The translations under genes were made by a program, and so were the position numbers. A stretch of 64,000 nt of DNA, taken from assembly GCA_963851265.1 (NCBI GenBank), contig CAWKNZ010000010.1, forward strand, positions 151,026-215,025, written 5' to 3'. Under the pieces are notes generated by a model, which was not told the origin of the DNA, made no database searches, and saw nothing but the letters and a program-made list of their open reading frames with translations. Positions 40 to 33,591 of the stretch are shown here, piece after piece. This stretch comes from an uncultured Gemmatimonadales bacterium (lineage in GTDB: Bacteria; Gemmatimonadota; Gemmatimonadetes; Gemmatimonadales; Gemmatimonadaceae). Each line of letters starts with the position of its first letter. Position 1 is the stretch's first letter.

Positions 40-1317
40 CTACCGCGAGGCGTACCGCGAGGCGGCACGAGCGGCCGGGGGCGGGCCGACCCGCGATGCG
101 AGTCGTGCTCCCGCCACCGGTCCGATGGGCGTTGGGCGCACGGTCAGCAACTGCTCCGCCGCGTCGAGCCCCGAGACCTGGGCCGCCGCACCCGGAGCGA
201 CCGAAACCGCCGCGGCCGCGGCCGCGCGCGGCGGTACCGGCGCGGGTCGCGAGCGCGGGTACGGGTCCGGAGACGGCAGCGACGACGAGTCGGTCGGGAT
301 CTTGTCGACCGCGTCGCGCCGGTCGACGATGCCGTCGAACGACGTGTCCGCCGGCGTGTGCGCGTCCCACGGCCCGGGGTGGCCCCAGAGCGCCGGATAG
401 TCCTTGACCATGCTCACGCCCGCGAGCGGCTTGTGCACGCCGTTGTGACACGTGGCGCAACCGACCATCGGCGGGTCGCCGCGCTCGCCCAGCCGCACGG
501 CGGGGAGGACGGTGCCGAGCGGGCCGACGTACGTCTGGTTGATGTGGCGCGTCATGCGCAGCCCGTAGAGCGCCGACACGCGCGTCCAGGGCGCGTTCTG
601 CCAGCTCGCCCACGAGCGGCTGTTGTGGCAGAACGTGCAGTTGACGCCTAACGAGTTGCTCATGTTGATCATGAGCGCGTACGTCCACTCGGCCTGCCGG
701 ACCGACGAGTAGTTCGCGTTGGTCGGCGGCGCGGTGTACGACTGCACCCGGACGTCCGACCGGTCGAGGTAGGCGCGGAGGTACTGGTTCTCGTTGGTCT
801 GGTGCCAGAGCCCCGCGCGCGGCACCGGGGCCCCGTAGTGGCACGTGTAGCACGTGACGCCGGTGACCCGCACGTGCGCGCGCCAGTTGGTGTTGATGTC
901 GCGCGTCATCAGCAGCATGCGGCGCGAGACCACCTTGGCGTACTTCTCGTCCGAGGCGTAATTGGCGGGGTTGTGGCAGTAGATGCACCCGGCCTGCGAC
1001 CCCGTCTTCGGCGCCACCCAGTTGGTCATCGCCTGCATGGTGCGCGTGAACTCGCCCGCGGGCAGGTTCACGAGCACCTGGACGTTTTGCCAGTTGCCGA
1101 CCGGTGTGTTGGGCGGCGCCGGCGGCAGCGGCGGCAGCGCGACGTTGCGCGAGAGGACCTCGCGTTCGTTGCGGACGTCGATGTTCTGCTCTTCGGCGAC
1201 CCCGCGATAGCCGAGTTGCGCCGTTTCCTTCTTCCCCAGCTGGCACGCCGCGAGTGCGGCGGCGGCCAGGGGGAAGGTGACGGCCGACCACGCGCGGGCG
1301 GTCATGCGGATGGTCAT
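40..1317 (-). CDS. pufC: Photosynthetic reaction centre tetraheme cytochrome c subunit (lipoprotein, C-terminally extended)
   Basis: LAAC lipobox; four CxxCH motifs (CIYCH, CYTCH, CTFCH, CATCH); NVQVL and F-TR-M-AMT-WV PufC motifs; directly downstream of pufM. Confidence 0.96.
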
Positions 1318-2774
1318 GGCGGCGTCCTCTGGGACTTCGGGGCCGGCGTCGTCCCCTGGGCGGGGACCTCGTTTCGCGCGGCGCCCGGCGGCGGCGTCAC
1401 GCGCGGCTTCGCGGCCGCCGGGTTCTGCGGATAGTACGGGGCGGGCGCGCCTTTCGGCAGCGGGAGCGTGCCCGCGTTGGCAGGCGGCGCCGCACCCATC
1501 GGTTGTGCCGGGTTCAGCTTCCCGGGATACGGGGACGTCGTGGCCGGGCCCGCGGCGTTGGGCTGCGCGCTCGTGTTGGTGCTCGCGTTGGGCATCGCAC
1601 CCGCCGCCGGATTCGCCGTCGTCGGCATCTGCACGACCGGCGTGTTCTGCTGCAGATGGCCGATGTGACCGCCCCGCGTCGCGCCCGGGAACGTGTCGGG
1701 CGGCGAGCCCTGGTAGTACCCGCGCAGGTCCTGCGCCTTACGCGGCGAGATCACGATCGTCGCGGGGTACTGCGGCGTGAGGCCGTGCTTCTGGCCCCAC
1801 AGGTACCAGTTGTCGACCGCGGTGCCCGTCAGCAGGATCCCGATCGCGCCGGTGAACGTGGTGAGGAACGCGAACCACCAGCTCCAGCGGTGGATGCTCT
1901 CCATCGTCGCGTTCCAGCCCATCGTCCAGCGCCAGAACAGCGCCGCGCGCTCGGTCGCGGTGCCGCGGTCGGTGATCTGCTCGATCTCGCGCTCGCCGCC
2001 CAGGCGGCTCACGGCCAGGATGGTGGCACCGTGCATCGCGAAGAGCAGCGTCGACCCGTAGAGGAAGACGATGCTCAGCATGTGGAACGGGTTGTAGAAC
2101 AGGTTCCCGTAGCGCAGGCTGAACGCGGCCGTCCAGTCGAGGTGCGGCAGGATGCCGAACGGCACCGCCTCGCCCCAGCTTCCCATCAGCAGCGGCCGGA
2201 TGAAGCCGAGCGACAGGTAGAGGAAGATCGCCGAGGCGAACGCCCAGGGCAGGTGCGTGCCCAGCCCCAGCGCGCGCACGCGGCGGTAGGTGCGCACCCA
2301 CCAGAGGATGATGCTCGTGGTGAGGAAGAACCCCGCCATGAGCCACCACCCGCCCTGGTTGAGCGGCGGGATGTGCAGCCCGTAGGCGGGCGGCGGCGGC
2401 TCGAGCGCGAGCCACGGGAGGCGTCGCACGAACTGGATCGGGTTCCAGTTCACCGACGCGAACATGTTGAGCCCGATGATCTCGAAGGCCGCGAAGCCGA
2501 AGATCAGCGACGCGACGCCGGTCGCGCCCAGGTAGATGGGGCCGACCTGCGCGTCGCCGAGCTTGCCGAGCCAGTACGAGAATCCCGGGGCGCCCTGGCG
2601 CACCCACGTGCGCTGCTCGATGGGCACGCCCCAGTCGGGGGCGGTGCGCACCTGCACGCTCGTGAACAGGTTCTGGTACTCGAGCCGCGGCAGGAATGCC
2701 GTGAGCGGGTCGAGCGGTTCGGGGGCCGCCGCCGGCGGCGCGCCGGCGGGCGTCGGCTGTGTGATGGTTGCCAT
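1314..2774 (-). CDS. pufM: Reaction centre M subunit with N- and C-terminal extensions (486 aa)
   Basis: [55 protein letters not shown]. Confidence 0.98.
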
Positions 2775-2784
2775 GGCCGCTTCC

Positions 2785-3609
2785 TCAGCGCCAGATCGGG
2801 AGGTTGAGCCACCAGTCCCACCACTCCGGCCAGCCCTTGGTCCAGAGCGGCCCGCTCACCACGATGCAGAGGGCCGAGAAGATCCCGGCGCCTAACGCAA
2901 GGGCGAGTCCGAGGCGGTGGATGCCGACCGCGCCGATCGAGTAGCCGAGCACGTCGCGGAAGAAGGTGTTCTCGTGCTCGCTCGTCTTCACCGGCTCCCC
3001 CTTCTTGGGGTTCACCACGGAGAGGATGAGCGACCCGTGCATGGAGAGCGCGAGCGTCGTCGTGAAGAACAACGTCACCGCGATCATGTGCAACGGGTTG
3101 TAATGGAAGTGCAGGTACTGGTACCCGACGTTGCTCACCCAGTCGAGGTGGCTCAGGATGCCGTAGGGGAAGCCGTGTCCCCACGCGCCGAGCCAGACGG
3201 GGCGGATGACGACGAGCGTGACGTAGGCGAACACGGCCACGCCGTACGCCCAGGGGATGTGCATCCCCATGCCCAGCTTGCGCGAGATCTCGGCCTGCCG
3301 GAACGCCCAGCTCACGAACGCGCCGATCGCGGCGATCGTGATGAGCTGCCAGAGGCCGCCCTCACGGAGGGGGGCGAGGCCCAGTCCGTACTTGAGGTCG
3401 GGCGGGGCGATGTTGATCTGCCACAGGTCCCAGGTGCCGCCGATGGCCGCGCCCCAGACACAGAGCAGCGTCCCGACGACGGCGAAGAAAATGGTGGTGA
3501 CGCCGAAGAAGCCCACGTAGAACGGTCCGACCCAGAAATCGAACAGGTCGCCGCCGATCAGCGTGCCGCCCCGGACGCGGTACTTGGCCTCGTAACTCAG
3601 CATGGCCAT
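2785..3609 (-). CDS. pufL: Reaction centre L subunit
   Basis: [49 protein letters not shown]. Confidence 0.99.
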
Positions 3610-3724
3610 GTCGCAGGCCCTCCGCGTGGTGAACGAACGGGAAAAGAACGAAACGTGCTAGGGAGCGCGGGGCGGGGGGCCGCCCGGGGGGAGCACGCCG
3701 ATGGGCGCGCCCCCCCCGCGGGGC

Positions 3725-3904: not shown

Positions 3905-3913
3905 GGCGGGCTC

Positions 3914-4243: not shown

Positions 4244-4392
4244 AACAACCTCCGGGGTGTGGAGAGCGCCGCCGCCCGGCCGTGGCCGGCCGTCGACGGC
4301 GTGGTGAGCGACGCCGCGCGCGTGCACGTCACGCGCGGGCGCCGCGGGGACGGCGCGCCGGGACCGGCGCGCCTAACATGTAGCCCAACATA

Positions 4393-5307
4393 GTGTCCGA
4401 CACATCGCCTAACACGGGGCCCGACTGGGCCGAGTGGCGCGGCCGCTGGCCCAACGCGGCCGCCAGCCGCTTCGTCCGCGCCGCCGGCTACACCTGGCAC
4501 GTCCAGGTCGCCGGCGCCGGCCCGCCCCTGCTCCTCCTGCACGGCGCGGGCGGCGGCACGCACAGCTGGCTCCGCGTGCTGCCGCGCCTCGCGACGCGTT
4601 ACACCGTCGTCGCCTGCGACCTGCCGGGGCACGCGTTCACCGACGCGCCGCCGGCCGACCGCCTCACGCTGCCCGGCATGGCGGCCGACGTCGCCGCGCT
4701 CCTCGCCACGCTCGGCCTGCGCCCGCGGCTCGCCGCGGGTCACTCGGCCGGCGCGGCCGTGCTGCTCCGCATGGCGCTCGACGGCGCCCTGCCCGACGCG
4801 CGCGCGCTCGTCGGCATCAACGCCGCGATCGTCCCGCCGCCCGACGTCTACCGCCTGCTCGGCGGGTCGTGGCTGCGCGGCGCGTTCACGGGGCTGTTCA
4901 CCGGCCCGCTCGTCACCCGCCTCACCACGCGCTACGCCGCGCGCGCCGGCGCCGTCGAGGCGCTGCTGCGCTCCAGCGGCTCGCGCGTGCCGCCGCTCCT
5001 CGTCGCCTGCTACGAGGGCCTCGCGACGAGCGAGCGCCACGTCCGCTCGACGCTCACGATGATGGCCGAGTGGCAGATCGAACCGCTCCTGCGCGACGCG
5101 CGCGCGCTGCGCGTCCCGACCGTGCTCCTCTCCGGCGCCGACGACCGCTGGGTGCCGGCCGGCGCGGTACAGCGCGTCGCCGCCTACGTGCCGGGCAGCG
5201 AGTTCGAGCTGTGGCCGCACCAGGGCCACCTCATGCACGAGGAGCTGCCCGACGCCACGGCCGACCGCGTCCTGGCGCTCGGCGCCGCGCACGGCCTGGG
5301 CGGCTGA
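4393..5307 (+). CDS. bchO: Alpha/beta hydrolase, BchO family (Mg-chelatase accessory)
   Basis: WPNAAASRFV..WHVQ N-terminus, LLHGAGG, GHSAGAA nucleophile elbow, GHLMHEE; PGC context. Confidence 0.88.
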   Translation: MSDTSPNTGPDWAEWRGRWPNAAASRFVRAAGYTWHVQVAGAGPPLLLLHGAGGGTHSWLRVLPRLATRYTVVACDLPGHAFTDAPPADRLTLPGMAADVAALLATLGLRPRLAAGHSAGAAVLLRMALDGALPDARALVGINAAIVPPPDVYRLLGGSWLRGAFTGLFTGPLVTRLTTRYAARAGAVEALLRSSGSRVPPLLVACYEGLATSERHVRSTLTMMAEWQIEPLLRDARALRVPTVLLSGADDRWVPAGAVQRVAAYVPGSEFELWPHQGHLMHEELPDATADRVLALGAAHGLGG

Positions 5308-5330
5308 CCCCTCGCGAGCCCGCGCGCCGC

Positions 5331-6854
5331 TCACGCCCCGGCCCCCGCGAGCGCGCCGCGCGCGCCCTCGACGAACGCCCGCGTGACCGCCGCCGCGCCC
5401 GCGTGCCGCGCGTCCCGCTCGGCCCGGTCACGAATCCGCTTGGCGACCGAGATGCGGGCCACGTACGGCGCGGCCTCCACCGCCTCGTCGAGGCCGGCCT
5501 GCGCGCCGTCGTCCCACGGCAGCGCGTCGTCCGCCGCGACGACGCCCGCCGAGCCGGCCGCCGCACCCGCCGCGCGCGCCGGCGTGGCGTCGATCCGGTC
5601 CAGCTCCGTGCCTAACGGGATGATGTGGAACAGGGTGTCGAACAACGCGTTGCAGCACTCCTGCACGAGGTACGTCGCGCCGGCGTACCCCATGAAGGGC
5701 GTGCCGGTGTGCCGCCGCACGACGGCGCCCGGGAACGACGCCGGGATGTACGTCGCCCGCCCGCCGGTCTCCGCGAGGTACATGCGCTCGTTGAAGCTCC
5801 CGAACAGGACGAGCGGCGGCCGCTCCTTGATCGACTGCCGCACGGCCGCGTTGTCGGTCTTCTGCCCGGGCCGCCGCGCGACCGCGAAGGTGCACGGCAT
5901 CCCGAGCTCCTCCTCGAGGAAGTGCCGCAGCCCGCGCGCGTACGTCTCGTTCGCGACCACGCCGAACGACGCCGTGCCGAAGAAGTCCTGCGTCACGCTC
6001 CGCCACAGATCCCAGAGCGGCTTCACCGTCGTGTGCTTCTCGCTCGCGATGAACGGCTCGGGGTCGAGGCCGAGCTCCGCGCCGAGCGCCCGCAGGAACG
6101 CCGTGGTGCTGTGCAGCCCGATCGGCGCCTGGAAGTAGGGCCGGCCGAGCGCCTCGGCCAGCAGGCGCCCGTACTCGCGGTACATCACCACGTTCGCCTC
6201 GGCATCGATCAGCCGCGGCACGTCGGCGAGGTGGCAGCCGAGCGGGAAGGTGAGGTTCACCTCCGCGCCGATGCCTTCGACCAGCCGGCGCAGCTCGGCG
6301 AGATCGCTCCACACGTTGAACGTGCCGTACGCGGGGCCGAGGATGTTCACCCGCGGGCGCTCCCCGGCCGCACGTTCGCGGGGCTTGGGGGCCACGCCGC
6401 GCTTGAGCCCGTACTCGGTCCACAGCCAGGCCATCGCGCGGTTCGCGCTCTGCCACTGGTCCTCGTCGATCGTGCGCGGCAGGAAGCGCTGGATGCCGGT
6501 GCCTTCGGGCGTCACGCCGCCGCCGATCATCTCGGCGATCGATCCGGTGACCACCACCGACGGCAGCTCGGGGTCGAGCGCGCGGTGCGCGCGGCGCATG
6601 GCGCCCTCGGTGCCGTGCTGGCCCAACTCCTCCTCGCCGAGGCCGGTGACGACGATCGGCAGCTCGTGCGGCGGGAGCGCGTCGGTGTAGTGCAGGACCG
6701 ACGTGACCGGGAGGTTCTCGCAGCCGACGGGGCCGTCGATGACGACCTGCAGCCCCTTCACGGCCGTGAAGACGTACACGGCGCCCCAGTAGCCGCCGGC
6801 GCGGTCGTGGTCGAGGACTAACACGGAGCGCCTCCCCGCGATCGCGACGCGCAT
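5331..6854 (-). CDS. bchZ: Chlorophyllide a reductase subunit Z
   Basis: [40 protein letters not shown] overlaps the bchY stop (TGATG). Confidence 0.97.
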
Positions 6855-8407
6855 CAGACCATCTCCTCCGCCTTGCGCGCCCGCGCGAGCTTGACGAGGT
6901 GCCGCTTGTAGTGCTCGCGGAACTCCGGCCGGTCCTGGGGCAGCTCGTTGGACGCGGTGCGCTCCCACACACCTGCCGCGTGGCCCTCGCCCACCCCGGC
7001 GAAGAACTCGCGCATCCGGTCGAACCGCGCGCGGTTGGCGACGGCCCCGTTGACGACCGGCGCGAGCGCTCCCGCCCCCGCCGGGCCCATCAGCGGACGC
7101 GCGGAGATCAGGTTCGTGAAGTAGAGCGCGGGCACGCCGCGCTCCTTCGCGTGCTGCACCACCGGCGTCGTCCCGATCGCGACGTCGGGTTGGAACTCCT
7201 CGAACGCGGCGAGGTCCTGCTCCAGCGACGCGCGGTACTGCACGTGCACGCCGTGCGCGGCGAGCCACTCGCGGTCGGGCTCGCTCCAGGGCGTCCGCGG
7301 GCAGGCCGTGCCGACGTAGCGCACGTCCGCGCCGCTCTCGACGAGCAGCCGCGCGACGATCAGCTCCGACCCCTCGTACCCGGAAAGCGTGACGCGCGCG
7401 TCGATCCGGTTGGCCGCGAGCGCGGCGCGGATCGGGTGCAGCACGCCCTTGGCGGTGTCGATCGCCGAGCGCGCCGCGCCCGTCGCCTCGCCCACCGCCT
7501 CGAGCCACGCGGCCGTTCCGTCGACACCCACCGGCGCGGAGGGGAGCACGCGCCGCCCCGCCGCCTCGAACTCGCGCACCGAGGCGACGTAGAAGGGGTG
7601 CAGCGCCGCGACCACCGCGCCGTCGAGCGCGGCGTACAGCTCGCGCCACTCGCGCGTGGGCACCGCCGGCCCCGCCGCGAGGCCTAACGGTTCGAGCAGC
7701 CGGCCGATCACGACCGGGTCGGCCGGGAACAGCTCGCCCAGCAGCGTGACGGTCGGCTTCGCGCTCACGCCCGCGCGCGGCGCGCGCACCGGGCCCTGCT
7801 CCGCCTCGCCGCGCGCGTAGCGCAGCATCGCGCCGGCCAGCACGTCCTTCGCCTCGGCGTGCGTCGGCACGCCGAAGCCCGGCACGTCGATGCCGACCAC
7901 GCGCACGCCGTTGATCTCCTTCGGCAGCAGCTGCAGCGGCACGCCCGACGCCGTGGGCACGCACAGGTTGGTCACCACGATCGCGTCGTACTGCGCAGGG
8001 TCGGCGAGCTCGTGCACCGCGTCGCGGATGTCCTCGAACAGCTTGCCGGTGACGAGCGACTCGGAGTTGAACGGCACGTACCCGACGGTGCGGCGCGCGC
8101 CGTAGAAGTGGCTCGTGAACGTCAGGCCGTACACGCAGCACGCGCTGCCCGAGAGCACGGTCGCCGTGCGGCGCATGCGCAGCCCGACGCGCAGCGATCC
8201 GAACGCGGGGCACATGCTCTGCGGACGGTCGTGCGGGCCTTTCGGGTAGTCGCGCGCGAACCCGTCGAGCACGTCGCCCTTGCCCGCGGCGGTCGCGGCC
8301 GCGCGCAGCTGCTCCGCCCCCGCGTGGCAGCCGAGTCCGTCGACGCCGTCAGTGGGCATGTTGGGCACCGCCTCGGGGGCAACCAGTGTGGCCATCGTCG
8401 CGCTCAC
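6854..8407 (-). CDS. bchY: Chlorophyllide a reductase subunit Y
   Basis: [42 protein letters not shown]. Confidence 0.97.
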
Positions 8408-9439
8408 TCAGACGGCGTCGTAGACGATTTCGAGCGACGGGCGCGTGACGATCGCGCCCCCGCACATGTCCGCCATCGTCGCCGGGTCGAGCACGACGTC
8501 GCGGCCCACCGCCTCGGCCGCGAACAGGTCGAGCAGCGCGTTCTGCGAGAGCGGGCGCGGGCGCACCGGCGGCGCCTCGGCGACCGCGGTCGCGAGCTCC
8601 TCGAAGACCGGCGCCCAACGCGTGCCGGGGCGGCCGATGATCTCGTAGTTCGCGCTCTTACGCCGGATGTCCTCGTGCGCGGGGATCGCCGCGAGCACGG
8701 GGATGCCGGCCGCCTCGGCGAACCGCGCGGCCTCACCGGTGCCGTCGTCCTTGTTCACCACGAGCCCCGCAACGCCGACGTTGCCGCCGAGCTTGCGGAA
8801 GTACTCGACCGCCGAGCAGACGTTGTTGGCGACGTAGAGCGACTGCAGGTCGTTGGAGCCGACGACGATCACCTTCTGGCACATGTCGCGCGCGATCGGC
8901 AGCCCGAAGCCGCCGCACACCACGTCGCCGAGGAAGTCGAGGAGGACGTAGTCGAACCCCCACTCGTGGAAGCCGAGCTTCTCGAGCAGTTCGAAGCCGT
9001 GGATGATCCCGCGACCGCCGCAGCCGCGGCCGACCTCGGGGCCGCCCAACTCCATCGCGAACACGCCGTCGCGCTTGAAGCAGACGTCCGAGATCGACAC
9101 CTCCTCGCCCGCGAGCTTCCGGCGGCTCGACGTCTCGATGATCGTCGGGCAGGCGCGGCCGCCGAACAGCAGCGACGTGGTGTCGCTCTTGGGGTCGCAG
9201 CCGATGAGCAGCACGCGCTTGCCCTGCTGCGCCATCATGTACGACAGGTTGGCGAGCGTGAAGCTCTTCCCGATGCCGCCCTTGCCGTAGATCGCGATCA
9301 CCTGGGTGGCCTTCGTGACCTCGCCGGTCGCCGGCGCGGTGGGCGCCTCGTTGGCTTCGGCTCGCAGGCGGCCCGTGAGCTGCACGAGGGCGGACGGCGC
9401 GGACGTCGTGGGGGTGTAGGCTGTCGCGACTGCGGTCAT
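8408..9439 (-). CDS. bchX: Chlorophyllide a reductase iron protein X
   Basis: AIYGKGGIGKSFT P-loop, GCDPKSD, GRGCGGRG, DFLGDVVCGGF. Confidence 0.98.
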   Translation of the reverse strand: MTAVATAYTPTTSAPSALVQLTGRLRAEANEAPTAPATGEVTKATQVIAIYGKGGIGKSFTLANLSYMMAQQGKRVLLIGCDPKSDTTSLLFGGRACPTIIETSSRRKLAGEEVSISDVCFKRDGVFAMELGGPEVGRGCGGRGIIHGFELLEKLGFHEWGFDYVLLDFLGDVVCGGFGLPIARDMCQKVIVVGSNDLQSLYVANNVCSAVEYFRKLGGNVGVAGLVVNKDDGTGEAARFAEAAGIPVLAAIPAHEDIRRKSANYEIIGRPGTRWAPVFEELATAVAEAPPVRPRPLSQNALLDLFAAEAVGRDVVLDPATMADMCGGAIVTRPSLEIVYDAV

Positions 9440-10515
9440 GCCTCGTTGCTCCAATCGGATGAGTGCGGGTCGGCGGCGCGCCAGTCGAGGACCATCTTGA
9501 CGCACGATGGATCGTCGAACGCCGCGGCGTAGGCGGACGCGACCGCGGCCTCGCCGTCGGCGACGCGCACGCGGTGCGTGACCACGCCGCCGAGCGAGAG
9601 GCGGCCGGCCGAGACGAGGTCGCGCGCGGTGGCGAGGTCGTCGGGGCGGAACTCCGCCGCGACGCGCAGCCGCAGCCCGCGCAGGAAGGCGGGGATGAAC
9701 GGGAAGGCGATCGGCGCGGTGTAGAACCCGGCGAGTACGACCTCGCCCCCGGGGCCCAGCCGCGCGACGAGCGCGTCGAGAATGCCGGCCGCCCCGCTCG
9801 CGTCCATCGCACGGCGGTAGTCGCGCCGAGGGTCGGCGTCGGGGTGGACGACGGCGTAGCCCCGGGCCCCGCCGACGCGCCGCGCGTCCGTCTCCCACAC
9901 GGTCGGCGCCGCGCCGCCGAGGGCCAGCACGAGGCGCGCGGCCAGACGGCCTAACGCGCCGTGGCCGACGATGAGGTCGGGGAGGGGCGCGCCCGGCGCG
10001 CGCTCGTCGCGCACGGCGTGCATCGCCGTCGCGGCGAGGGCGAGCAGCACGCCGTTCTCGCCCGGGACGTCGCCGACCGGGTGGACCCGCGCGCCGGGCG
10101 CGACGAGCGTCTGCCCCGCCCCGCCGAACAGGTTGCGCACGGCGCCGCCGCCGTCGCGTGCGTCGCCGACGAAGCCGTGCGCGCCGGGCACGAACACGCG
10201 CTCGCCCGCCGCGCGCCCGCTCGCCGCCCCGGCCCAACGCACGCGCCCGACGGTCTCGTAGCCGGGCACGAGCGGGTAGCCCATGCCGGGGAACGGCGGC
10301 ATCGTGCCACGCCAGAACAGGCGCTCGGTGCCGGCACTCACGCCGCTCCACTCGACGTCCACGACCACGTCCGCGTCGGTCGGCACGGCCAACGACAGCT
10401 CGCGCACCGCCAGCAAGCCGGGCGCGTCGAAGACCACCGCGCGAGCGCGCGTCGGCACGAGCGGGTGAGCCGGGGGCGCATGCGCCGCAGCGTCCGGGCG
10501 GACGGCCGTCGTCAC
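9436..10515 (-). CDS. bchC: 3-hydroxyethyl bacteriochlorophyllide a dehydrogenase
   Basis: SGVSAGTERLFW.G.MPPFPGMGYPLVPGYE, GHGALGRL, C.KMVLDW; GTG start overlapping the crtF stop. Confidence 0.96.
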   Translation of the reverse strand: MTTAVRPDAAAHAPPAHPLVPTRARAVVFDAPGLLAVRELSLAVPTDADVVVDVEWSGVSAGTERLFWRGTMPPFPGMGYPLVPGYETVGRVRWAGAASGRAAGERVFVPGAHGFVGDARDGGGAVRNLFGGAGQTLVAPGARVHPVGDVPGENGVLLALAATAMHAVRDERAPGAPLPDLIVGHGALGRLAARLVLALGGAAPTVWETDARRVGGARGYAVVHPDADPRRDYRRAMDASGAAGILDALVARLGPGGEVVLAGFYTAPIAFPFIPAFLRGLRLRVAAEFRPDDLATARDLVSAGRLSLGGVVTHRVRVADGEAAVASAYAAAFDDPSCVKMVLDWRAADPHSSDWSNEA

Positions 10516-13065: not shown

Positions 13066-13071
13066 CCGCCG

Positions 13072-22479: not shown

Positions 22480-22487
22480 CGTCGTGC

Positions 22488-24437
22488 TCACCGGTGGCCT
22501 GTCCCCGAGCCCGGCGGGCTTCCCGTGGCGCCCCCCTGCTGCTGGTTGGGCAGCGAGGGGACCGCGGGGACGTTCTCGGGGAGCGTGTAGACGTACAGCG
22601 TCCCGCCGCGCGGCGGGAAGCCCTTCTCGGCCTGCAGCGTCATCGCGAAGCCGCCGACGCCGCTCATCACCGCCACGTACTGGTGCCCGTCGGGGCCGCG
22701 GTAGGTCATCGGCGGGCTGTGGATGCCGCTGCCTAACTTCTGCGACCAGAGCACCTGTCCGGTGCGCGCACTCACCGCCCGGAACCAGCCGTCGGTGGTG
22801 CCGTAGAAGACCAGGTCGCTGGCCGTGACCATCGGCCCGCCGGCGACGTAGAGGTGCTCGGGGATCGCCCACGCGCGCTTGCCCGCGGCCGCGTCCCAGG
22901 CGATCAGCTCGCCGTAGTTCCCCCCCGGCCCCGGGTGGCGCGTCATGTCGGCGCCCCAGTACGGCGTGCCGGCGATGTAGCTGACCTCGCGCCCGCGGTA
23001 GTCCATGCAGGCGTTGTTGACCGACGCGTAGTACCAGCCCGTGCGCGGCGAGTACGCCGCGGGCTGCCAGTTGGATACGCCGATGTCGGGCGGGCAGATG
23101 TTGCGCACCCAGCGCCCCGGCGGGATCGTCTGCTTGTCCGCGTTGACGATCGGTTGCATGGTCTTGGGGTCGATCCCGCTCGACCAGTTCTCGTAGCCGA
23201 ACGGCTTGGCGACCAGCACCTCTCCCGTCTCGCGGTCGATCGTGTAGGCGTACCCGTTCCGGTTGAACTGGACCAGCGTCTTGCGCGTGCGCCCGTTCAC
23301 CGGGATGTCGGCGAGCACGTTCCAGTTCACGCCGTCGTAGTCCCACTGGTTGTTAGGCGTGAACTGGAAGGCCCAGCGCGCGTACCCCGTGTTGGCGTCG
23401 CGCCCGAACACCGCGCTCGTGAACAGGTTGAGCCCGGGCCGCTGGTCGGCGTTCCACGGTCCGGGGTTGCTCGTGCCGTTGTAGACGAGGTTGAGGTCGG
23501 GGTCGTACGAAATCCACCCCCAGACCGCGCCGGCGCCGTGCTTCCACGCGTCGGCGGGCCAGGTCCGGGCGCCCATGTCCTTGCCCTTGAGCCAGCTGTA
23601 GAACGGCTTGTAAGTGTCGTTGATGCGCACGAGCGAGTCGGGGCCGGTGCTGAAGGCGCGCCAGAGCTCCTTGCCCGTGTGTACGTCGAGCGCGGCCATC
23701 CAGCCGTGCGCGCCCATCTCGCCTCCGGAGTTGCCGACGTAGACCTTGTCGCCGACGACGAGCGGCGCCATGGTCATCGTGACGCCGTCCTCCACGTTCG
23801 CCATCTTCGTGCGCCACACCTCCTTCCCCGTCGCGGTGTCGACGGCAACCGTGTGGTCGTCGAGGAGGTTGTAGATCAACTTCCCGTCGGCGATCATCGC
23901 GCCACGCGTCACCGCGTCGCAGCACGCCTTTCCGATCGCGGCCGGCGAGGGGTTGGGCTTGAAGGTCCACTTGAGTGCCGGCGCGCCGGGCGTCGTGAGG
24001 TCGAGCGCGTACGCGTTGCTCGGAAAGGGCGCGACGACGTACATCGTATTCCCGGCGACGAGCGGCGCGGCCTCGTGCCCGTGCCGGACCGCGGTCGAGA
24101 ACGAGAAGGCGAGCTTGAGCCGCCCCACGTTGGCGGGCGTGATCTCGGTCAGCGGGCTGTAGCGCGTCATCCCGTAGTCGCGCCCGGTGGTCAGCCAGTT
24201 GCCGTCGGTCGTGCCCGGCGGGTACCACCGGGCGGCGCGCTCGAGCATGGCCGGGTTGGCGACGGCGTTCGCGCCCCCGGGGGCCGCGGCGCCCGGCGCA
24301 GCGTTAGGCGCGGCGTCGGGCCGGAGGGTGCCGGCGGCGAGGCCGCGGTCGTCGCGCTTGCCGCAGGCGGCCGCGAGCGTGAGGGCGCCCGCGGCGAGGG
24401 CGGTACGGGTGCGGGAGGAGCACGTCGAGTGAGGCAT
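22488..24437 (-). CDS. PQQ-dependent alcohol dehydrogenase, methanol/ethanol family, D-Y-D (lanthanide-type) motif
   Basis: TRYSPL.EI, ACCDAVTRG vicinal Cys, GNSGGEMG, WGWISYDP, WDYDGVN; LAAAC lipobox. Confidence 0.93.
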   Translation of the reverse strand: MPHSTCSSRTRTALAAGALTLAAACGKRDDRGLAAGTLRPDAAPNAAPGAAAPGGANAVANPAMLERAARWYPPGTTDGNWLTTGRDYGMTRYSPLTEITPANVGRLKLAFSFSTAVRHGHEAAPLVAGNTMYVVAPFPSNAYALDLTTPGAPALKWTFKPNPSPAAIGKACCDAVTRGAMIADGKLIYNLLDDHTVAVDTATGKEVWRTKMANVEDGVTMTMAPLVVGDKVYVGNSGGEMGAHGWMAALDVHTGKELWRAFSTGPDSLVRINDTYKPFYSWLKGKDMGARTWPADAWKHGAGAVWGWISYDPDLNLVYNGTSNPGPWNADQRPGLNLFTSAVFGRDANTGYARWAFQFTPNNQWDYDGVNWNVLADIPVNGRTRKTLVQFNRNGYAYTIDRETGEVLVAKPFGYENWSSGIDPKTMQPIVNADKQTIPPGRWVRNICPPDIGVSNWQPAAYSPRTGWYYASVNNACMDYRGREVSYIAGTPYWGADMTRHPGPGGNYGELIAWDAAAGKRAWAIPEHLYVAGGPMVTASDLVFYGTTDGWFRAVSARTGQVLWSQKLGSGIHSPPMTYRGPDGHQYVAVMSGVGGFAMTLQAEKGFPPRGGTLYVYTLPENVPAVPSLPNQQQGGATGSPPGSGTGHR

Positions 24438-24493
24438 CACCACGGATCGGGGCACGGCGGAACAGGGCGCAGGGCGCGGACGCGGCGTGGCGG

Positions 24494-25504: not shown

Positions 25505-26277
25505 GGGCCGGTGCTCGCGATGGGCAGCGAAAGCCCCGCGAGGAGCGTGAGCGGGTGCGCCGCGTCGAGATAGCGCCGTTCGCCGCGGGGCACCTCGTCG
25601 CCCGCACGCGGCAGCCCGGTCGCCACGTAATCCAGCAGCACCGTGACGGCCACCCCGTGCGCCCACGTCGCGCGCGCGAGCCGCGCGAACGGGTAGGCGT
25701 CGGTGACCAGATCGAGCTCGAGCTTGTGCGTGTACGAGCTGCGATCGTCAGGCCGCTGCGCAGGACCGTACAGGTCGCCGACGTGGGCGCTCAGGTCGAA
25801 CCACCCCGCGGCATCGGCGGTCCGGACGAGCGCCCCGGTGGCGACGAGCGTAACGGTCGGCGAGTTCGCGTGGAGGTACGTCGAGCCGACCTCGCTCGCC
25901 GTGTAGCGCGTGAACGGGTTACCCTGCTCGGTCGCGTTCGGCGTCCACTGCACGCTCCCCAGGAGCCCGACGCGGGGAATCGGCGTCTGCACGGTCCCGA
26001 CGAGCGTCAGCTGCAGGTTGCTCTCGGGCGGGAGCCGGCGCACGCTGCCGTCGCTCAGCCGCTCGACGCGGGGCGCGCCGGCGATCGGCGACCGGTTGAG
26101 CGCGGGAAAGAAGGTGAGCGCCGGCGAGCAGAGGACGTGGCACGGCGCCGCCGGTGCCTGGGCGGCGACCGGTGCGGCGACCGGCACGGCGAGTGCCGTT
26201 AGGCAACGGGCGGCGGCCGACCGCCCCGCGTCCCGCGCGCGCGGGACGGCCGCCGCGCGGCCCACCCGCCTCGCCAT
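25501..26277 (-). CDS. Exported hypothetical protein
   Basis: Signal-like N-terminus, C-x3-C, coupled to the operon by a GTGA overlap. Confidence 0.6.
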   Translation of the reverse strand: MARRVGRAAAVPRARDAGRSAAARCLTALAVPVAAPVAAQAPAAPCHVLCSPALTFFPALNRSPIAGAPRVERLSDGSVRRLPPESNLQLTLVGTVQTPIPRVGLLGSVQWTPNATEQGNPFTRYTASEVGSTYLHANSPTVTLVATGALVRTADAAGWFDLSAHVGDLYGPAQRPDDRSSYTHKLELDLVTDAYPFARLARATWAHGVAVTVLLDYVATGLPRAGDEVPRGERRYLDAAHPLTLLAGLSLPIASTGP

Positions 26278-26340
26278 CCGCCCGAACACCCCGTGACGCA
26301 CGTGTCCTCCCGCCCGCCATGACCGCAGCAGGCTCCGCCG

Positions 26341-26400: not shown

Positions 26401-26522
26401 CGTGAGCGCGGTGGCGTGCAAGTCCCGGGCGCGGGGGCCCACGCCGTGCGCGCCACGGCCTTGGGATATCTTTGTGCGACCGCGCCCGGCACCGCCGGTC
26501 GTGCCACGCGCAGCCTCCGCCC

Positions 26523-27308
26523 ATGCCTCCGTCCCGCTCCGCCGCCCGCCCGCCCGCTGCCGGAACGCCTCGCGCACGCGGGGCCGCTCCGGCGCGCACC
26601 GCCACTCGGGGTGACGAACGCAATCGACTCCTGGCTCGCCTGCCCAGCGCCGAGTACGCCCGCCTGGCGGCGCACCTCGCGCCCGTGACCTTCCCCGCGC
26701 GCCATGTCGTGTACGAGCCGGGGGCACCGATCACGCACGTCTACTTCCCGCAGGCCGGGATGTTCTCCCTGGTCCTGCCGCTCGCCGACGGCGGCACGGT
26801 CGAGGTCGGGATGGTCGGCCGCGAGGGCATGGCCGGCATCCCGGCCGTGCTCGGGGTCGACGCGCCGGCCATCCGCTGCATCGTGCAGCTCGAGGTGCGC
26901 GCGCAGGCCCTGCGCGTCCCGGTGCTGCGCCGCCTGTCGCGCGGCGACGCCGCGCTCCACGTCCTCCTCAAGCGGTACGTCCAGACACACATGGACCAGA
27001 TCGCCCAGGGGGCGGCGTGCAACCGGCGGCACACGCTCGAGCGCCGCTGCGCGCGCTGGCTGCTCATGAGCCACGACCGCGCCGAGGCCGACGCGTTTCC
27101 GCTCACGCAGGAGTTCCTCGCCTACATGCTCGGCGTGCACCGCCCCGCCGTCGTCACGGCGTTAGGCGTCCTCCGGAACGCGGGGCTGGTCGAGTCGTCG
27201 CACGAGCGCGGGGGCGGAATCCGCATCCTGGACCGCCCCGGGCTGGAGCGCGCGGCGTGCGAGTGCTACGCCGCGATCCGCCGGCGGTTCGACGCGGTGT
27301 TCGCGTGA
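26523..27308 (+). CDS. Crp/Fnr family transcriptional regulator
   Basis: NRLLARLP, VYFP..G..S, EVGMVGREG, ACNRRH.LERRCARWLL, LTQEFLAYMLGVHR, ACECY. Confidence 0.93.
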   Translation: MPPSRSAARPPAAGTPRARGAAPARTATRGDERNRLLARLPSAEYARLAAHLAPVTFPARHVVYEPGAPITHVYFPQAGMFSLVLPLADGGTVEVGMVGREGMAGIPAVLGVDAPAIRCIVQLEVRAQALRVPVLRRLSRGDAALHVLLKRYVQTHMDQIAQGAACNRRHTLERRCARWLLMSHDRAEADAFPLTQEFLAYMLGVHRPAVVTALGVLRNAGLVESSHERGGGIRILDRPGLERAACECYAAIRRRFDAVFA

Positions 27309-28259: not shown

Positions 28260-28340
28260 GTATCCTCCGTTGCTGGTGTGGGGCGGAGTGTAGCGCGCGG
28301 GCGGACCGGTGCCAGGGGTCGCGCCGGCGGCGGGAATCCG

Positions 28341-28751
28341 TTAGGCGACCGGCCCGGCGCGACGCGACTCCTCCACCACGGCGATCGCGTCGACCGAGAA
28401 CAGGAGCCCCCGCGGGAGCGCGATGACCGGCGTGGACCGAACGGGCGGGCTCTCAGGAAAGCATTCGGCGAACAGCGCGTTCAACGTGCCGAACGCCCCG
28501 GGATCTGCCACGTAGCACGTCACCTTCACGACGCGCTCCATCCGGCTCCCCGCGTCCTCGAGCACCGCGCGCAGATTGGCGAACGCCTGCCGCGCCTGCG
28601 CCTCGAAGGTTTCACCCGCCACCTGCCCCGTCGCCGGATCGATCCCCGGCTGTCCGGCGGTGAACACGAGGTCCCCCACGCGCACGGCCTGCGAGTAGGG
28701 CCCGATACGCGGCACGCGCGCACTCTCGACGACTTCGTCCGGCAACGCCAC
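28341..28751 (-). CDS. RidA/YjgF family protein
   Basis: IGPYSQAV, VFTAGQ, PPVRST, LP.G; start approximate. Confidence 0.9.
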   Translation of the reverse strand: MALPDEVVESARVPRIGPYSQAVRVGDLVFTAGQPGIDPATGQVAGETFEAQARQAFANLRAVLEDAGSRMERVVKVTCYVADPGAFGTLNALFAECFPESPPVRSTPVIALPRGLLFSVDAIAVVEESRRAGPVA

Positions 28752-28954
28752 TGGGTTTCCTCGTGAGGGTGAGAACGACCATCGCGCGTCGGACGGTAGC
28801 ATCAGCACCGGCGCGCGGGATCGGCCAGGCCGATGTCGGCGCGCCCGGCCCGCACGCGGCAACGCCGGAGGGGCATTGTCAGGATCCATGCTCTCGCGTT
28901 CGCCGCTTGCTCGCGGCCCGGAGCCGCGCACGATGATTGCTTGGCCGCCCACTC

Positions 28955-31456: not shown

Positions 31457-31492
31457 CGCGTGCTCCGGATCAGCACGGCTGACGCCTGTCGA

Positions 31493-31737
31493 TCACGCAC
31501 GGACGGCGTTCGAGCGCAACGCCTCGTTCGGCGGGTTGCACCGGGGTTGGATTCGCGGCGCGGCCCGGAGCTCGTCGACGACCCGCTCCACTGTGGCCGT
31601 GACCTCGTCGGGCGCGTCGTGGCCGAGGTACTCGGCGAATGCCTCGGCGTGGGGCTGACTGCGCGTCCGGTGCGCGCGGCTGTGTGCTGTTCCGCCGTCC
31701 GGAAGAGCCGGTCGGAGACGGAGACGGCGGTCCTCAT
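31493..31737 (-). pseudogene. Frameshifted ribbon-helix-helix antitoxin remnant
   Basis: MRTAVSVSDRLFRTAEQ in one frame continues as RSQ..AEAFAEYLGHDAPDEVT in another; no toxin partner seen. Confidence 0.55.
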
Positions 31738-31971
31738 ACCGCGAGCATAACCCCGAGGCCAGGCGTCGCCAAGGCTGCGGATCTGCCCCGGCCGGGATGC
31801 CGCCCAACGTCAGGGTTGGCGGTGATGTGACGTTGGAGCGCCACCGGTTGGGTGAGGTACGGGCGGCTTGGGACTCCGGACACGTCCGGCCGATATCGGT
31901 GCGCGTGTGCGCCCATCCCGAGGCTATCGGCGGACCTTTGGAGCCGTGATGCGGCGTGTGTCCGCCGGCGC

Positions 31972-32541
31972 CTACGGGCCCGCGCCAGCGCCCGCTCTGG
32001 TCGTGATTTTGATGACACCGTTCGCCGCCTCGGGGGCCGCGTAGCGCGTCGCGGCGGCAGGGCCCTTGATGACTTCGACGCTGACGATCTCGCCCGGGGT
32101 GAGTGCCCGCATCGCGGCCGCGTCGCGGCGCTTGCCGTCGATGAGGACGACGCCGTCGAACGTTCCCCCGGACGTCGCGCGCACGCGGTCCGCGACGCCG
32201 GTGCCGTTCGGGCCCGCCGCCCGGCGCGTCACGATCGCGATCGTGCCGTGGTCGTCGGGGCCATGCCTCGTGACCTCGATGGACGCGATCTCCGCCGGCG
32301 TGAGCGCGCGCGCCTGCGCGGCCGCCACGCGCCGGCCGTCGACTGTGTAAGTCGCGAGCGAGTCGCCCGGCGCGTGCACCGCCAGCGGTTGTGCCCCCCG
32401 CTCCGCGGCGCTGACGTCGAGGTTCGCGACCTGGGTGGCGGTGGGGAGCGTGCTCTCGCACGCGGCGACTACGAGCACGAGGGCGAGTGCGTTGAGGCCG
32501 AGGGCCTGGGCACGGGCGAAGCGCGGGCGGGTGGGGCGCAT
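31972..32541 (-). CDS. Lipoprotein with TonB-receptor plug-like repeats
   Basis: VVAAC lipobox; two VDG...LTP.EI.S.EV repeats; KG.AA..RY..EAANGVI.ITT. Confidence 0.7.
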   Translation of the reverse strand: MRPTRPRFARAQALGLNALALVLVVAACESTLPTATQVANLDVSAAERGAQPLAVHAPGDSLATYTVDGRRVAAAQARALTPAEIASIEVTRHGPDDHGTIAIVTRRAAGPNGTGVADRVRATSGGTFDGVVLIDGKRRDAAAMRALTPGEIVSVEVIKGPAAATRYAAPEAANGVIKITTRAGAGAGP

Positions 32542-32604
32542 GGCGAGCAGTCTCCGTTCGAGCTGACCGCTGGGCGCGGGCGCCGGACCGCGCGCCAGCC
32601 GACG

Positions 32605-33591
32605 TTAGGCGGCTTGGGGCGGGTCGTCGCGTCTGGCGAGGTCGGGCGCGGGGAGATCGAAGATGCCGGCCATGGCCGTCGCGAGCGCGTCGCGCAGCTC
32701 CGGTGCTGTCGCCCCGAGGTGGTACGCGGCCACCACCGCGGGCCGCAACAGCCCCGTCAACGCGGCGGGCCGCTCGGCCGCCGGCACGACCGGCGCCCGC
32801 GGGGCGACGCGCGTGCCGCGCGTGCCCTCCGTCACGACCGCGCCGCGCCGTTCGAGCTCCGCGTACGCGCGGGCGACCGTCCCGGGCGCGACGTCGAGCG
32901 CGTCGGCGAGCTGCCGCACCGTCGGGAGGCGGTCGCCGGTGGCGAGTTGCCCCGTCGCGACCGCCTCCTGCACCTGCGCGACGACCTGCTCGTAGATCGA
33001 CCGGTCGGACGTGTCGTCTAACCGCACGCGGAAGGCCGGCGCGGCCGGCGCCGCGTCCGAGGCGAGGGCGTCGCACGTCCCGGTGTGTCGGACGGCGGCG
33101 CGCGCCGCCTCGAGCGTGACACCGCGGTCGGCCAGCACCTGCGCCGCGACTCCGCGGCCTTCGGCGAGCAACCCGAGCAGGAGGTGCTCGGTGCCGAGGC
33201 CGTCGTGGCCGAGCCCCTCGGCCTCGCGCAACGCGAGCTCGACGACGCGTTTCGCGCGGCCCGTGTACGGGGTGTCCTCGACACGACCGGCGTACGGGCC
33301 CGTGCGCGGCCCGGCGGCGTCCGCGGTTTGCGCCCGGACGGCCGCGAGGTCGGCGCTGGCGGGCGCGAGGAGGGCCGTCAGAAGTCGGGCCGCGCCCCCG
33401 TCCGGCTCGCGCGTGAGCGCGAGTAGCAGGTGCTCGGTACCGACGAACGCGTGCCGGAGCCGGTGCGCCTCGTCGCGCGCGTCCGCGCCCATGGCGCGGC
33501 GCGCCGCACCTGTGAAGGCGACGCCGGCCGGTGCTCCCGGGGCGCGCGCAGTAGTGGTGCCCTTCGTGGTGCGTTGCGTGCGACCAGACAT
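32605..33591 (-). CDS. Clp N-terminal repeat domain fused to a GntR (YtrA-type) HTH regulator
   Basis: Two GTEHLLL Clp-N repeats; SIYEQV...GDRLPTVRQLA..L.V.PGTVARAY.ELE. Confidence 0.88.
   Translation of the reverse strand: MSGRTQRTTKGTTTARAPGAPAGVAFTGAARRAMGADARDEAHRLRHAFVGTEHLLLALTREPDGGAARLLTALLAPASADLAAVRAQTADAAGPRTGPYAGRVEDTPYTGRAKRVVELALREAEGLGHDGLGTEHLLLGLLAEGRGVAAQVLADRGVTLEAARAAVRHTGTCDALASDAAPAAPAFRVRLDDTSDRSIYEQVVAQVQEAVATGQLATGDRLPTVRQLADALDVAPGTVARAYAELERRGAVVTEGTRGTRVAPRAPVVPAAERPAALTGLLRPAVVAAYHLGATAPELRDALATAMAGIFDLPAPDLARRDDPPQAA

Follow-up and report, generated by a model that had tools for sequence, protein, structure and literature searches.

Why should one exact heptamer, GTTAGGC, recur through ordinary genes of a chromosome in which it is often carried by the rare codon TTA? 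The question was raised by a stretch of 64,000 nucleotides (the window) from the genome of an uncultured Gemmatimonadales bacterium, G000, for which an earlier note had proposed a genome-wide selected or driven signal. The window holds 49 copies of the word, 18 at 646..32610 and 31 at 35401-63545. Dinucleotide shuffles of the window gave 3.03 +/- 1.68 copies, and 49 copies were reached in 0 of 100 shuffles. All 18 copies that it had placed outside the cassette array were found, nine per strand, and 14 of them are preceded by C as it had counted (three by T and one by A). The ten in-frame TTA-GGC copies and two GCC-TAA stops that it had described were also recovered, whereas three CCT-AAC copies were found instead of four; two further copies read CTA-ACx.

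In the reaction-centre cytochrome c gene (40-1314, -) the word is TCG-TTA-GGC (Ser-Leu-Gly) at 646..652 (-); among G000 and the relatives G001, G003 and G004 it occurs in G000 only, the relatives carrying GCCGAGC at the site. The pufL-type Photo_RC gene (2785-3606, -) has GCG-TTA-GGC (Ala-Leu-Gly) at 2890..2896 (-), common to G004 and G003 and absent from G001. A word at 4371..4377 (-), between the LHC antenna gene and a hydrolase gene and either intergenic or of unclear frame, is common to G004; at 4407..4413 (-) the other strand reads TCG-CCT-AAC (Ser-Pro-Asn) in the alpha/beta hydrolase gene (4393-5304, +). The bchZ-type gene carries TTA-GGC (Leu-Gly) at 5610..5616 (-) in the frame of the ORF 5331..8213 (-), and the bchY-type gene (6854-8404, -) carries CCG-TTA-GGC (Pro-Leu-Gly) at 7682..7688 (-); both words are conserved in G001, G003 and G004. 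The copy at 9949..9955 (-), GCG-TTA-GGC (Ala-Leu-Gly), is common to G001 only and lies in an open frame (ORF 8408..10351, -), upstream of a NifH domain of the bchX type. The earlier note had assigned it to bchC; this part of the ORF had no Pfam match and the assignment was not confirmed.

Two GCG-TTA-GGC words fall in the Mg-chelatase D-type gene (13106-14893, +), the one at 13159..13165 (+) being found in G000 only and the one at 14287..14293 (+) being conserved in G001 and G004 (same three relatives). Where the COX1/COX3 and COX2 frames overlap, a word at 20580..20586 (+) is read on the minus strand as CGC-CTA-ACG (Arg-Leu-Thr), and the COX2 gene (20538-21866, -) has GCG-TTA-GGC at 21777..21783 (-). 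The PQQ dehydrogenase gene (22488-25604, -) contains AAG-TTA-GGC (Lys-Leu-Gly) at 22731..22737 (-), ACG-CCT-AAC (Thr-Pro-Asn) at 23352..23358 (+) and GCG-CCT-AAC (Ala-Pro-Asn) at 24303..24309 (+). An unnamed frame (25501-26298, -) reads TGC-CTA-ACG (Cys-Leu-Thr) at 26198..26204 (+), and the Crp-type regulator gene (26472-27305, +) has GCG-TTA-GGC at 27161..27167 (+). The words at 28340..28346 (+) and 32604..32610 (+) form the GCC-TAA stops of an L-PSP/RidA-type gene (28341-28949, -) and a Clp_N/GntR gene (32605-33588, -), respectively.

The 31 further words lie in an IS-ridden gene-cassette array (35401..63545). Four adjacent inverted pairs in it, 90-114 bp apart (37911/38025, 43533/43623, 51925/52015 and 52649/52761), look like attC sites; the other array words are cassette-gene stops or lie inside transposase genes. 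An IS110-family element of 1,596 bp (49729..51324, +) has internal words at 49830 and 51032 (a stop) and an identical second copy at 55262-56857.

The whole genome contains 1,762 copies of GTTAGGC, on all 12 contigs (885 forward and 877 reverse) and at a density of 0.38 per kb, against a zero-order expectation of 397. The word is exact: variants that differ from it by one letter but leave the TTAG core intact number 4-68 copies each, and 98% of the 1,794 TTAGGC in the genome are preceded by G. Information in the flanks is confined to one base per side, with C (79%) or T (14%) 5' of the word and T in only 5% of cases 3' of it.

Gene calls were made with a crude GC3-based open-frame caller, which gave 2,941 frames covering approximately 80% of the genome. 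The called genes contain 1,129 GTTAGGC, compared to 78.9 +/- 8.4 after within-gene shuffling of synonymous codons and 47.6 +/- 2.1 under a null with codon usage taken from outside the words; a codon-aware ratio near one, which would have spoken against the earlier note, was thus not observed. Window genes at 1-33000 have 14 copies against 1.25 in the synonymous shuffle (largest shuffle 3). G-TTA-GGC holds 816 of the 1,177 TTA codons (69%), so that TTA is preferentially embedded in the word, as proposed. The word occupies 814 of 9,229 X-Leu-Gly slots (8.8%) and 196 of 1,356 X-Pro-Asn slots (14.5%), while dipeptide use is hardly altered (Leu-Gly O/E 1.02). Occupancy was 4-7% in low-GC3 genes and 13-15% in the most native-looking genes. 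Among stop codons, 101 of 356 TAA and 67 of 662 TAG lie inside the word. Its density per kb is 1.31 in convergent, 0.65 in tandem and 0.58 in divergent spacers, compared to about 0.30 in genes, and hairpins that have a copy in each arm are formed by at least five inverted pairs (about five were seen). The word belongs to the DNA level, being filled into synonymous slots in both orientations, and the claim of a genome-wide signal that overrides codon bias held.

In a phylum survey the word was strong in 16 of 401 genomes, spread across 10 genera; all five genomes of the genus of G000 were word-rich, and one word-poor genome was found within a word-rich genus. The relative G012 has 7,758 words, with a density of up to 1.5 per kb, and fills 23 of 60 [A/T/P/S]-Leu-Gly and 17 of 34 X-Pro-Asn slots. 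The photosynthesis cluster, which the note had considered already ameliorated, does carry the word at full density in G000, against 0 words in 25.7 kb of the cluster in word-poor G014 of another genus. Conservation at orthologous sites was partial: 13 of 21 words were identical between G000 and G004 and 8 of 17 between G000 and G001, and the preferred synonym GCTCGGC was identical at 50 of 156 and 47 of 144 sites, respectively. When a replacement word was sought in 200-kb samples of four word-poor genomes none was seen, thus giving no sign of dialects like those of Neisseriaceae. The word is therefore exact, hyper-abundant, without orientation bias, retained among congeners and patchy across genera, and the core proposal of the earlier note is supported.

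We tentatively favour the reading that the word marks DNA as self for uptake and has spread by molecular drive, as has been suggested for uptake sequences in Neisseriaceae and Pasteurellaceae. YGTTAGGC would be a "self" word written in the DNA and specific to the lineage, which some protein would recognise in either orientation, and a bias in favour of word-bearing DNA would have carried it over the whole chromosome; the most likely bias would be preferential uptake of such DNA followed by homologous replacement. Like the DUS of Neisseriaceae, which is received by the minor pilin ComP, the word is a lineage-specific, exact sequence of very high abundance that stands equally on both strands; it lies in genes, appears to be enriched in spacers, seems to form some hairpins as inverted pairs after genes, and occurs together with ComEC, a secretin and type IV pilins. 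It differs from the DUS in its length (7-8 bp versus 10-12 bp), in lying mostly in genes at synonymous sites with so few hairpin pairs, in having word-poor relatives that lack a dialect of their own, and in belonging to a phylum for which, to our knowledge, competence has not been described; a literature search found no paper linking the phylum with uptake sequences. With the USS of Pasteurellaceae, for which we know of no identified receptor, it shares many copies in genes, in reading frames that the protein tolerates, a spacing more even than random, and congeners that keep copies amid ongoing turnover. Unlike the USS it has no extended AT-rich flank, its density is different and the amino-acid composition of G000 is not visibly bent.

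Uptake hardware was common among 31 relatives (ComEC in 31, secretin in 30 and type IV pilins in 30) and equally so in word-poor and word-rich genomes; it thus gives no account of which genomes have the word and is permissive only. The ComP_DUS profile (PF16732) had no match over its 27.3-bit cut-off, the best scores (16-21 bits) falling on ordinary pilin genes; the best in G000 was 16.2 bits (E 0.07), and in word-rich G012 there was no match at E<=0.01. A receptor may belong to another family. No word-reading protein emerged from the co-occurrence that the note had suggested with intI, competence genes or methyltransferases: across the 31 relatives neither integron integrase, ComEC, secretin and pilins nor the intact methylase described below tracked the word.

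The words are more evenly spaced than chance and avoid one another within approximately 300 bp in G000. Genic gaps below 100 bp numbered 7 where 35 were expected, those of 100-200 bp 8 (expected 32) and those of 200-300 bp 15 (expected 31); in G012, gaps below 100 bp numbered 4 against 15 expected. This repulsion scale is shorter than expected if one tag per kilobase-sized fragment sufficed, which counts against the uptake reading. At the other extreme, one stretch of 45,086 bp has no word at all (Poisson probability 3e-8 per gap). It holds mnmG, parA, parB and mnmE together with a parS-like palindrome of 16 bp that has just two copies in the genome, both of them here. Among the longest gaps (15-22 kb), several contain housekeeping operons (infC-rplT-pheST, nusA-infB and dnaA-dnaN) and not alien DNA. 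The position of these gaps, and of the 45-kb gap with parAB, likewise counts against uptake.

Such spacing would suit a word to which an abundant protein binds on the resident chromosome (in nucleoid structuring, condensin or partition traffic, or transcription-independent marking) and which is kept by selection for regular coverage. An exclusion distance near 300 bp in G000, and near 100 bp in G012 where words are denser, fits footprint or nucleation logic. The word-free parAB stretch with its palindromes also speaks for such binding, and on our reading the counterpart segments are word-poor in G004 (7 words in about 40 kb) and G001 (4 words in about 42 kb) too. The non-palindromic, monomer-sized word corresponds to the arm bound by integron-type recombinases and might fit a domesticated, recombinase-like binder. 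However, words in G012 stand 0.1-1 kb from parB, so that words are not generally kept out of the partition zone. In G004 and G001 the segments contain few words, and these lie at differing places and accumulate at about the rate of unshared flank words, which suggests a segment that began empty and not a forbidden zone. No candidate for the protein emerged, and the nucleoid sites of this kind that we know of are few and palindromic. We consider this explanation unlikely. Modification-linked repair, in which a methyltransferase marks the site and short-patch repair turns near-matches into matches, has been put forward to explain the highly iterated palindromes that cyanobacteria carry. These palindromes, HIP1 and its alternates, are linked to orphan methyltransferases and resemble our word as exact short words, tens of times over-represented, in genes against codon bias and patchy across genomes. 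One intact adenine methyltransferase of the Eco57I/MmeI type (1,141 aa, C7:582089-585511) is encoded in G000, adjoining a SNF2 helicase; enzymes of this type have asymmetric sites of 6-7 bp with the target adenine next to last, a pattern that the complement of the word would fit. Near-matches with the TTAG core are very rare, and motif and non-motif states at orthologous sites are often two letters apart, e.g. GCTCGGC. Against this, the word is not a palindrome, this methylase is present in 30 of the 31 relatives irrespective of the word, no part of its sequence brings G000 closer to G012 than to word-poor genomes, and two other PF02384 genes in G000 are broken into pieces in several frames; neither a C5 methylase (PF00145) nor an N4/N6 methylase (PF01555) was found in G000. 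The modification site offered by the earlier note is weakened, and we regard this route as quite improbable.

A word that steers a DNA translocase in a polar way, as words of the Chi or FtsK-orienting (KOPS) kind do, would likewise be short, asymmetric and over-represented, and in raw counts 354 of the 630 copies on contig C2 lie on what is presumed to be the leading strand. That excess matches the strand bias of the genes (64.5% of gene bases leading). Provided that the putative dif-like site at C2:1368955 lies at the terminus, genes on the leading and lagging strands have equal occupancy (Leu-Gly 8.7% vs 8.9%, Pro-Asn 12.6% vs 15.3%), and outside called genes the leading strand carries 75 of 147 copies; the majority orientation of genes, used as a proxy, led to the same outcome. 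As slots are filled in both orientations and replication polarity is lacking, the word belongs to the DNA level and is not Chi or KOPS, as the note had argued; a word of that kind is refuted as far as sequence can show, and we give it virtually no credence. The possibility that the words serve the integron integrase (IntI) as secondary recombination sites, or were left behind by cassette traffic, draws on their letters: GTTAGGC fits the core pattern GTTRRRY that IntI binds and cuts in attC and attI, as a random heptamer would about 0.2% of the time, and is the exact core of the inverted pairs in the cassette array of G000 and of arrays in word-poor G021 and G023. The chromosomal words nevertheless differ from such sites, as they run into thousands and bear no relation to whether a genome has IntI. 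Genome-wide, only 8 adjacent inverted pairs have a distance of 60-150 bp, and the rest of the 1,762 copies are solitary, without attC partner or hairpin, at synonymous sites of conserved genes, where insertion sites would harm and not be favoured. Of 31 relatives, 18 have an integrase over the family cut-off, and many of these 18 are word-poor (G005, G006, G009, G010, G014, G019, G020, G026, G028 and G029), while in word-rich genomes it was interrupted (G000, C6:5244-6044 plus 3005-3166), fragmentary (G001 and G012) or not found (G002 and G018). This option of the earlier note was not borne out, and we judge it highly improbable.

Beyond what the earlier note described, the analysis brought out a mutual avoidance of about 300 bp, a peak density between convergent genes, the 45-kb word-free parAB stretch and a patchy distribution in the phylum. 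In a further version of the uptake reading, which we think has only a small chance of being right, recognition or uptake machinery would be tuned to the integron attC core; DNA bearing GTTAGGC, above all cassettes with the word twice each, would be taken in preferentially, and the chromosomal words would be a by-product through molecular drive. The word and IntI do not co-occur, yet a receptor need not be IntI. If true, this version would explain why the hyper-abundant word is the local attC core, and it would tie the supply of integron cassettes to sequence-specific DNA import.

In the window (contig C10:151026-215025 of the genome under study, G000, up to the contig end), 49 copies of the heptamer GTTAGGC, read on either strand, were counted, compared to 3.03 ± 1.68 in dinucleotide shuffles, and 0 of 100 shuffles reached 49. 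All 18 copies listed in the earlier note between 646 and 32610 were recovered where that note had placed them, nine on each strand, 14 of them preceded by C and 10 read in frame as TTA-GGC. These ten lie in the genes for the reaction-centre cytochrome, a Photo_RC subunit, two nitrogenase-like chlorophyllide reductase subunits, a Mg-chelatase D-type protein (two copies), COX2, the PQQ dehydrogenase and a Crp-type regulator, and in the frame upstream of the NifH-like subunit. For the other eight, the two GCC-TAA stops described before were found, but CCT-AAC was read three times rather than four; two copies are CTA-ACx and one has an unclear frame.

The abundance of the word is real and strong, and it extends over the whole genome. 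G000 (4.60 Mb, 12 contigs, 73% G+C) contains 1,762 copies, 885 forward and 877 reverse, compared to a zero-order expectation of 397. One-letter neighbours keeping the TTAG core occur 4 to 68 times each, G precedes 98% of the 1,794 TTAGGC, and 29% of all TTA trinucleotides belong to the word. C precedes the word in 79% of the copies and T in 14%, whereas T follows it in only 5%; information outside the word is limited to one base per side. With crude gene calls (a GC3-based caller, 2,941 frames, about 80% of the genome), 1,129 words fell within genes, compared to 78.9 ± 8.4 in a codon-aware null of the kind that the earlier note had proposed (here a within-gene synonymous shuffle) and 47.6 ± 2.1 when codons were resampled from usage outside words. 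As that note had supposed, most TTA codons, the rarest for Leu, are embedded in the word, G-TTA-GGC holding 816 of 1,177 (69%). TTA-GGC was the third commonest Leu-Gly codon pair in called genes (823 of 10,851), above CTG-GGC, and the word also contained 101 of 356 TAA and 67 of 662 TAG stops. The ratio of observed to expected dipeptides was 1.02 for Leu-Gly, 1.15 for Pro-Asn and 1.12 for Asn-Pro; dipeptide use is hardly altered, indicating that the word is written at synonymous sites and not through protein change.

Maximal-order Markov statistics hide the word, since its own sub-words consist of it. The top over-represented words under that model were AGCGCT-like cores (AGGCGCT 2,075 observed vs 1,040 expected, AAGCGCT 635 vs 234) and AGCNGCT types. 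A strong codon-pair bias was also seen in the avoidance of CTG ahead of GGC, with 777 CTG vs 5,430 CTC in that position and 37,771 vs 64,755 overall.

The fraction of dipeptide sites (slots) spelled as the word, where synonymous codons would allow it, depended on the flank. Occupancy was 15-18% following Ala, Thr, Pro or Ser (NCG codons, giving C before the word), 5.5-8.8% with T as the preceding base and 1.3-4.4% with A or G. It climbed with GC3, from 4-7% below 0.90 to 13-15% at 0.93 or more, so that the word load is highest in the most native-looking genes despite the rare codon. Words in short spacers were densest where genes converge (1.31 per kb), followed by tandem (0.65) and divergent (0.58) arrangements. 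At least five hairpins arise from inverted pairs with the word in both arms, and eight attC-like adjacent inverted pairs 60-150 bp apart were found genome-wide. When an equal number of words was put on random synonymous slots, close neighbours proved to be avoided: genic gaps below 100 bp numbered 7 vs 35.3 in the null, those of 100-200 bp 8 vs 32.1 and those of 200-300 bp 15 vs 30.7, while gaps of 300 bp or more gave ratios of 1.0-1.4. In 113 kb sampled from G012, a word-rich genome of another genus, gaps below 100 bp numbered 4 vs 15 and those of 300-750 bp 57 vs 39.

Raw genic orientation was uneven, with 859 sense and 265 antisense copies. Occupancy was 8.8% for X-Leu-Gly (814 of 9,229), 14.5% for X-Pro-Asn (196 of 1,356) and 4.1% and 1.3% for the two rarer frames, and the sense bias vanishes once the available slots are taken into account. 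A dif-like site (…CATAA-CATATA-TTATA…) at C2:1368955, where gene orientation turns from mostly plus to mostly minus, is likely the terminus; a Xer-type gene lies 22 kb from it. The site is without the word, which speaks against the word being the XerD arm of dif. Taking this site as terminus, Leu-Gly occupancy was 8.7% in leading-strand and 8.9% in lagging-strand genes, Pro-Asn occupancy 12.6% and 15.3%, and 75 of 147 copies outside called genes lay on the leading strand; a separate polarity test agreed. The earlier argument that lack of strand polarity speaks against Chi or KOPS therefore holds, and with no leading-strand preference such a role is excluded as far as sequence can show. No replication polarity and the filling of both orientations indicate that the word is read on the DNA, in either orientation.

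At orthologous sites the word exchanges with synonymous spellings such as GCTCGGC, GCTGGGC, GTTGGGC and GCCCAAC. In these small samples, 13 of 21 word 7-mers of G000 were kept identical in G004 and 8 of 17 in G001, both of the same genus; the preferred synonym GCTCGGC was unchanged in 50 of 156 and 47 of 144 cases, and 7-mers overall in 29-37%. Within the photosynthesis cluster, G000, G001 and G004 share sites 5610, 7682 and 14287, and the first two also occur in the congener G003, whose contig stops short of 14287. G000 alone has sites 646, 4407 and 13159, and the relatives carry sites of their own in the cluster. Among 31 relatives, detection of pufL-type genes was confined to four members of this genus and the word-poor G014, whose 25,677-bp photosynthesis-cluster contig contains no word. 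Since that cluster lacks words and those of the genus carry them, the photosynthesis genes gained their words within the genus lineage, in agreement with the earlier suggestion that they had been ameliorated.

The word is abundant in each of the five genomes of the genus, with 977-3,304 copies compared to 77-194 per strand for a reversed control word. G012 contains 7,758 copies (61% G+C on the sampled contig), with 23 of 60 [A/T/P/S]-Leu-Gly and 17 of 34 X-Pro-Asn slots filled and a core shifted by one letter (CGTTAGG 158, GTTAGGC 135). Most of the family has 10-100 copies per genome, and in the word-poor G006 and G015 none of 358 and 257 Leu-Gly slots were filled. In a phylum survey of 401 genomes, in which the 8-mer was counted and at least twice the control was called strong, 16 genomes were strong: 13 of 95 in the window's family (nine genera), 3 of 166 in a second family (one genus) and 0 of 140 in the other ten. 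These tallies take in four genomes flagged as unpublished (G011, G078, G117 and G198), on which none of the conclusions depends. One genus held three rich genomes (G235, G292 and G396; 3,479-4,141 copies vs 257-289 for the control) and a poor one (G288, 66 copies vs 190 for the control). A scan for dialects, using the neighbour ratio of 6- to 8-mers in 200-kb samples, found the word again in G000, G001, G004 and G012 (scores 10-27), and no comparable replacement word in samples of G006, G015 and G028 (score 4.9 or less). In the word-poor G029 (C1:200001-400000, loci L048-L057) the scan returned purine/pyrimidine-rich 8-mers, e.g. CCTCTCAC and AGAAGGGA, with about 20 copies and ratios of 6.5-8.6, which are probably part of a dispersed repeat.

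The longest word-free gap, 45,086 bp at C1:182876-227962, holds mnmG, parA, parB and mnmE. The chance of such a gap is 3e-8 per gap and 6e-5 across 1,750 gaps, and its G+C is native. The sole two genomic copies of the GC-rich palindrome TGTGGCACGTGCCACA, at C1:192709 and 195715, both lie in this gap, and the palindrome is probably a parS; no match to canonical parS was found in G000 at two or fewer mismatches. dnaA is located on the same contig, 170 kb away. In the orthologous segments, about 40 kb of G004 carry 7 words and about 42 kb of G001 carry 4, none common to both, in genomes averaging about 0.6 per kb. Compared with G000, these segments tend to match less closely (73-83% identity) than their flanks (72-89%), a hint that strains may diverge more where words are missing. 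In G012 words occur within 1 kb of parB and the segment is not word-poor. These G012 words weaken the case for a forbidden zone around parAB, as does the fact that G004 and G001 gain words at a normal rate; our tentative reading is a segment that was empty in the genus ancestor, through import or isolation from gene flow, and has been filling at the usual rate since. The next longest gaps (15-22 kb, near chance expectation) hold infC-rplT-pheST, nusA-infB and dnaA-dnaN. A type IV pilin gene lies just downstream of polA (C1:169101-169478), and a pilin gene lies 10-27 kb from parB in G000 and in three other genomes (G004:C1:1535737, G001:C5:757959, G012:C51:51413), which looks like a conserved neighbourhood.

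The co-occurrence with intI, competence genes or methyltransferases that the earlier note had proposed to test was not borne out: no tested candidate tracks the word. The word matches the integron core pattern GTTRRRY, as a random heptamer would about 0.2% of the time, and the window's array is a chromosomal integron that is rich in toxin-antitoxin genes and has duplicated cassettes. A DUF5615 (PIN-like)/DUF433 pair is present there twice with identical scores (window 42845-43438 and 60255-60848), beside more such pairs and HicA/HicB, BrnT and DUF6883 cassettes. Two identical copies of a 1,596-bp IS110-family element (window 49729-51324 and 55262-56857), the only ones in the genome, lie inside the array; attC-targeting IS elements are known from integrons, and by this analogy the element may be one of them. 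The integron integrase scored above the family cut-off (TIGR02249) in 18 of the 31 genomes, including many word-poor ones, and was not found in G002 and G018, genomes 78-79% complete. It is fragmentary in G001 and G012 and interrupted in G000, where two parts about 2 kb apart (C6:3005-6044, model positions 2-265 and 260-313) were probably split by insertion; as the array runs past the contig end, this integrase and the array may belong together. Integrase presence bore no relation to word counts, arguing against it as the reader, and an integron role, like a polar-word role, is close to excluded.

That the word is the product of a modification-linked repair bias appears improbable. No PF00145 or PF01555 methylase was found in G000 and two PF02384 genes there are broken; an intact Eco57I/MmeI-type methyltransferase (1,141 aa, C7:582089-585511) adjoins a SNF2-type helicase gene. 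This enzyme is present in 30 of 31 relatives of the order, and no 60-residue window of it showed G000 to be more similar to G012 than to five other genomes from outside the genus, of which four are word-poor and one is intermediate; both results argue against it as the reader. Many of its copies contain one in-frame TGA, for which read-through, a gene border or another cause may account. A resident protein-binding site, which the word might also be, is unlikely, if less so than the repair bias. The best-matching known class for the word's properties is the uptake sequences of Neisseriaceae and Pasteurellaceae, with which it shares being exact, unpolarised, synonymous, evenly spaced, retained and lineage-specific and, less clearly, enriched in spacers. 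By this likeness the word is possibly an uptake-type sequence, a tentative reading that we place ahead of the two just named. ComEC (31 of 31 genomes), secretin and type IV pilins (each 30 of 31), among the latter the pilin encoded next to polA, are general, so uptake hardware does not explain who has the word; ComP_DUS gave only sub-threshold matches of 16-21 bits, in ordinary pilin genes.

Among the matches listed from the searchable literature, none describes the word, and none ties the heptamer to integrons or Gemmatimonads to DNA uptake sequences. The present analysis adds codon-aware nulls, a test of polarity based on dif, the finding that copies avoid each other within 300 bp, the word-free gap at parAB, negative co-occurrence tests and a 401-genome survey with a within-genus contrast. 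To our knowledge, few exact genome-wide words have a known reader, namely Chi, KOPS, the palindromes of cyanobacteria and the uptake sequences of two families of Proteobacteria, and every one of them has opened up a part of DNA biology. The present word, of 7-8 bp, fills up to half of the open synonymous slots (in G012) and comes and goes between genera and even inside one genus, and this patchy presence should make its reader findable by comparative genomics. Because it is identical to the integron core, one may ask whether the movement of cassettes is connected with DNA import. If it serves as an uptake tag, the word would be the first one known from beyond Proteobacteria and would imply natural transformation in a major soil phylum.
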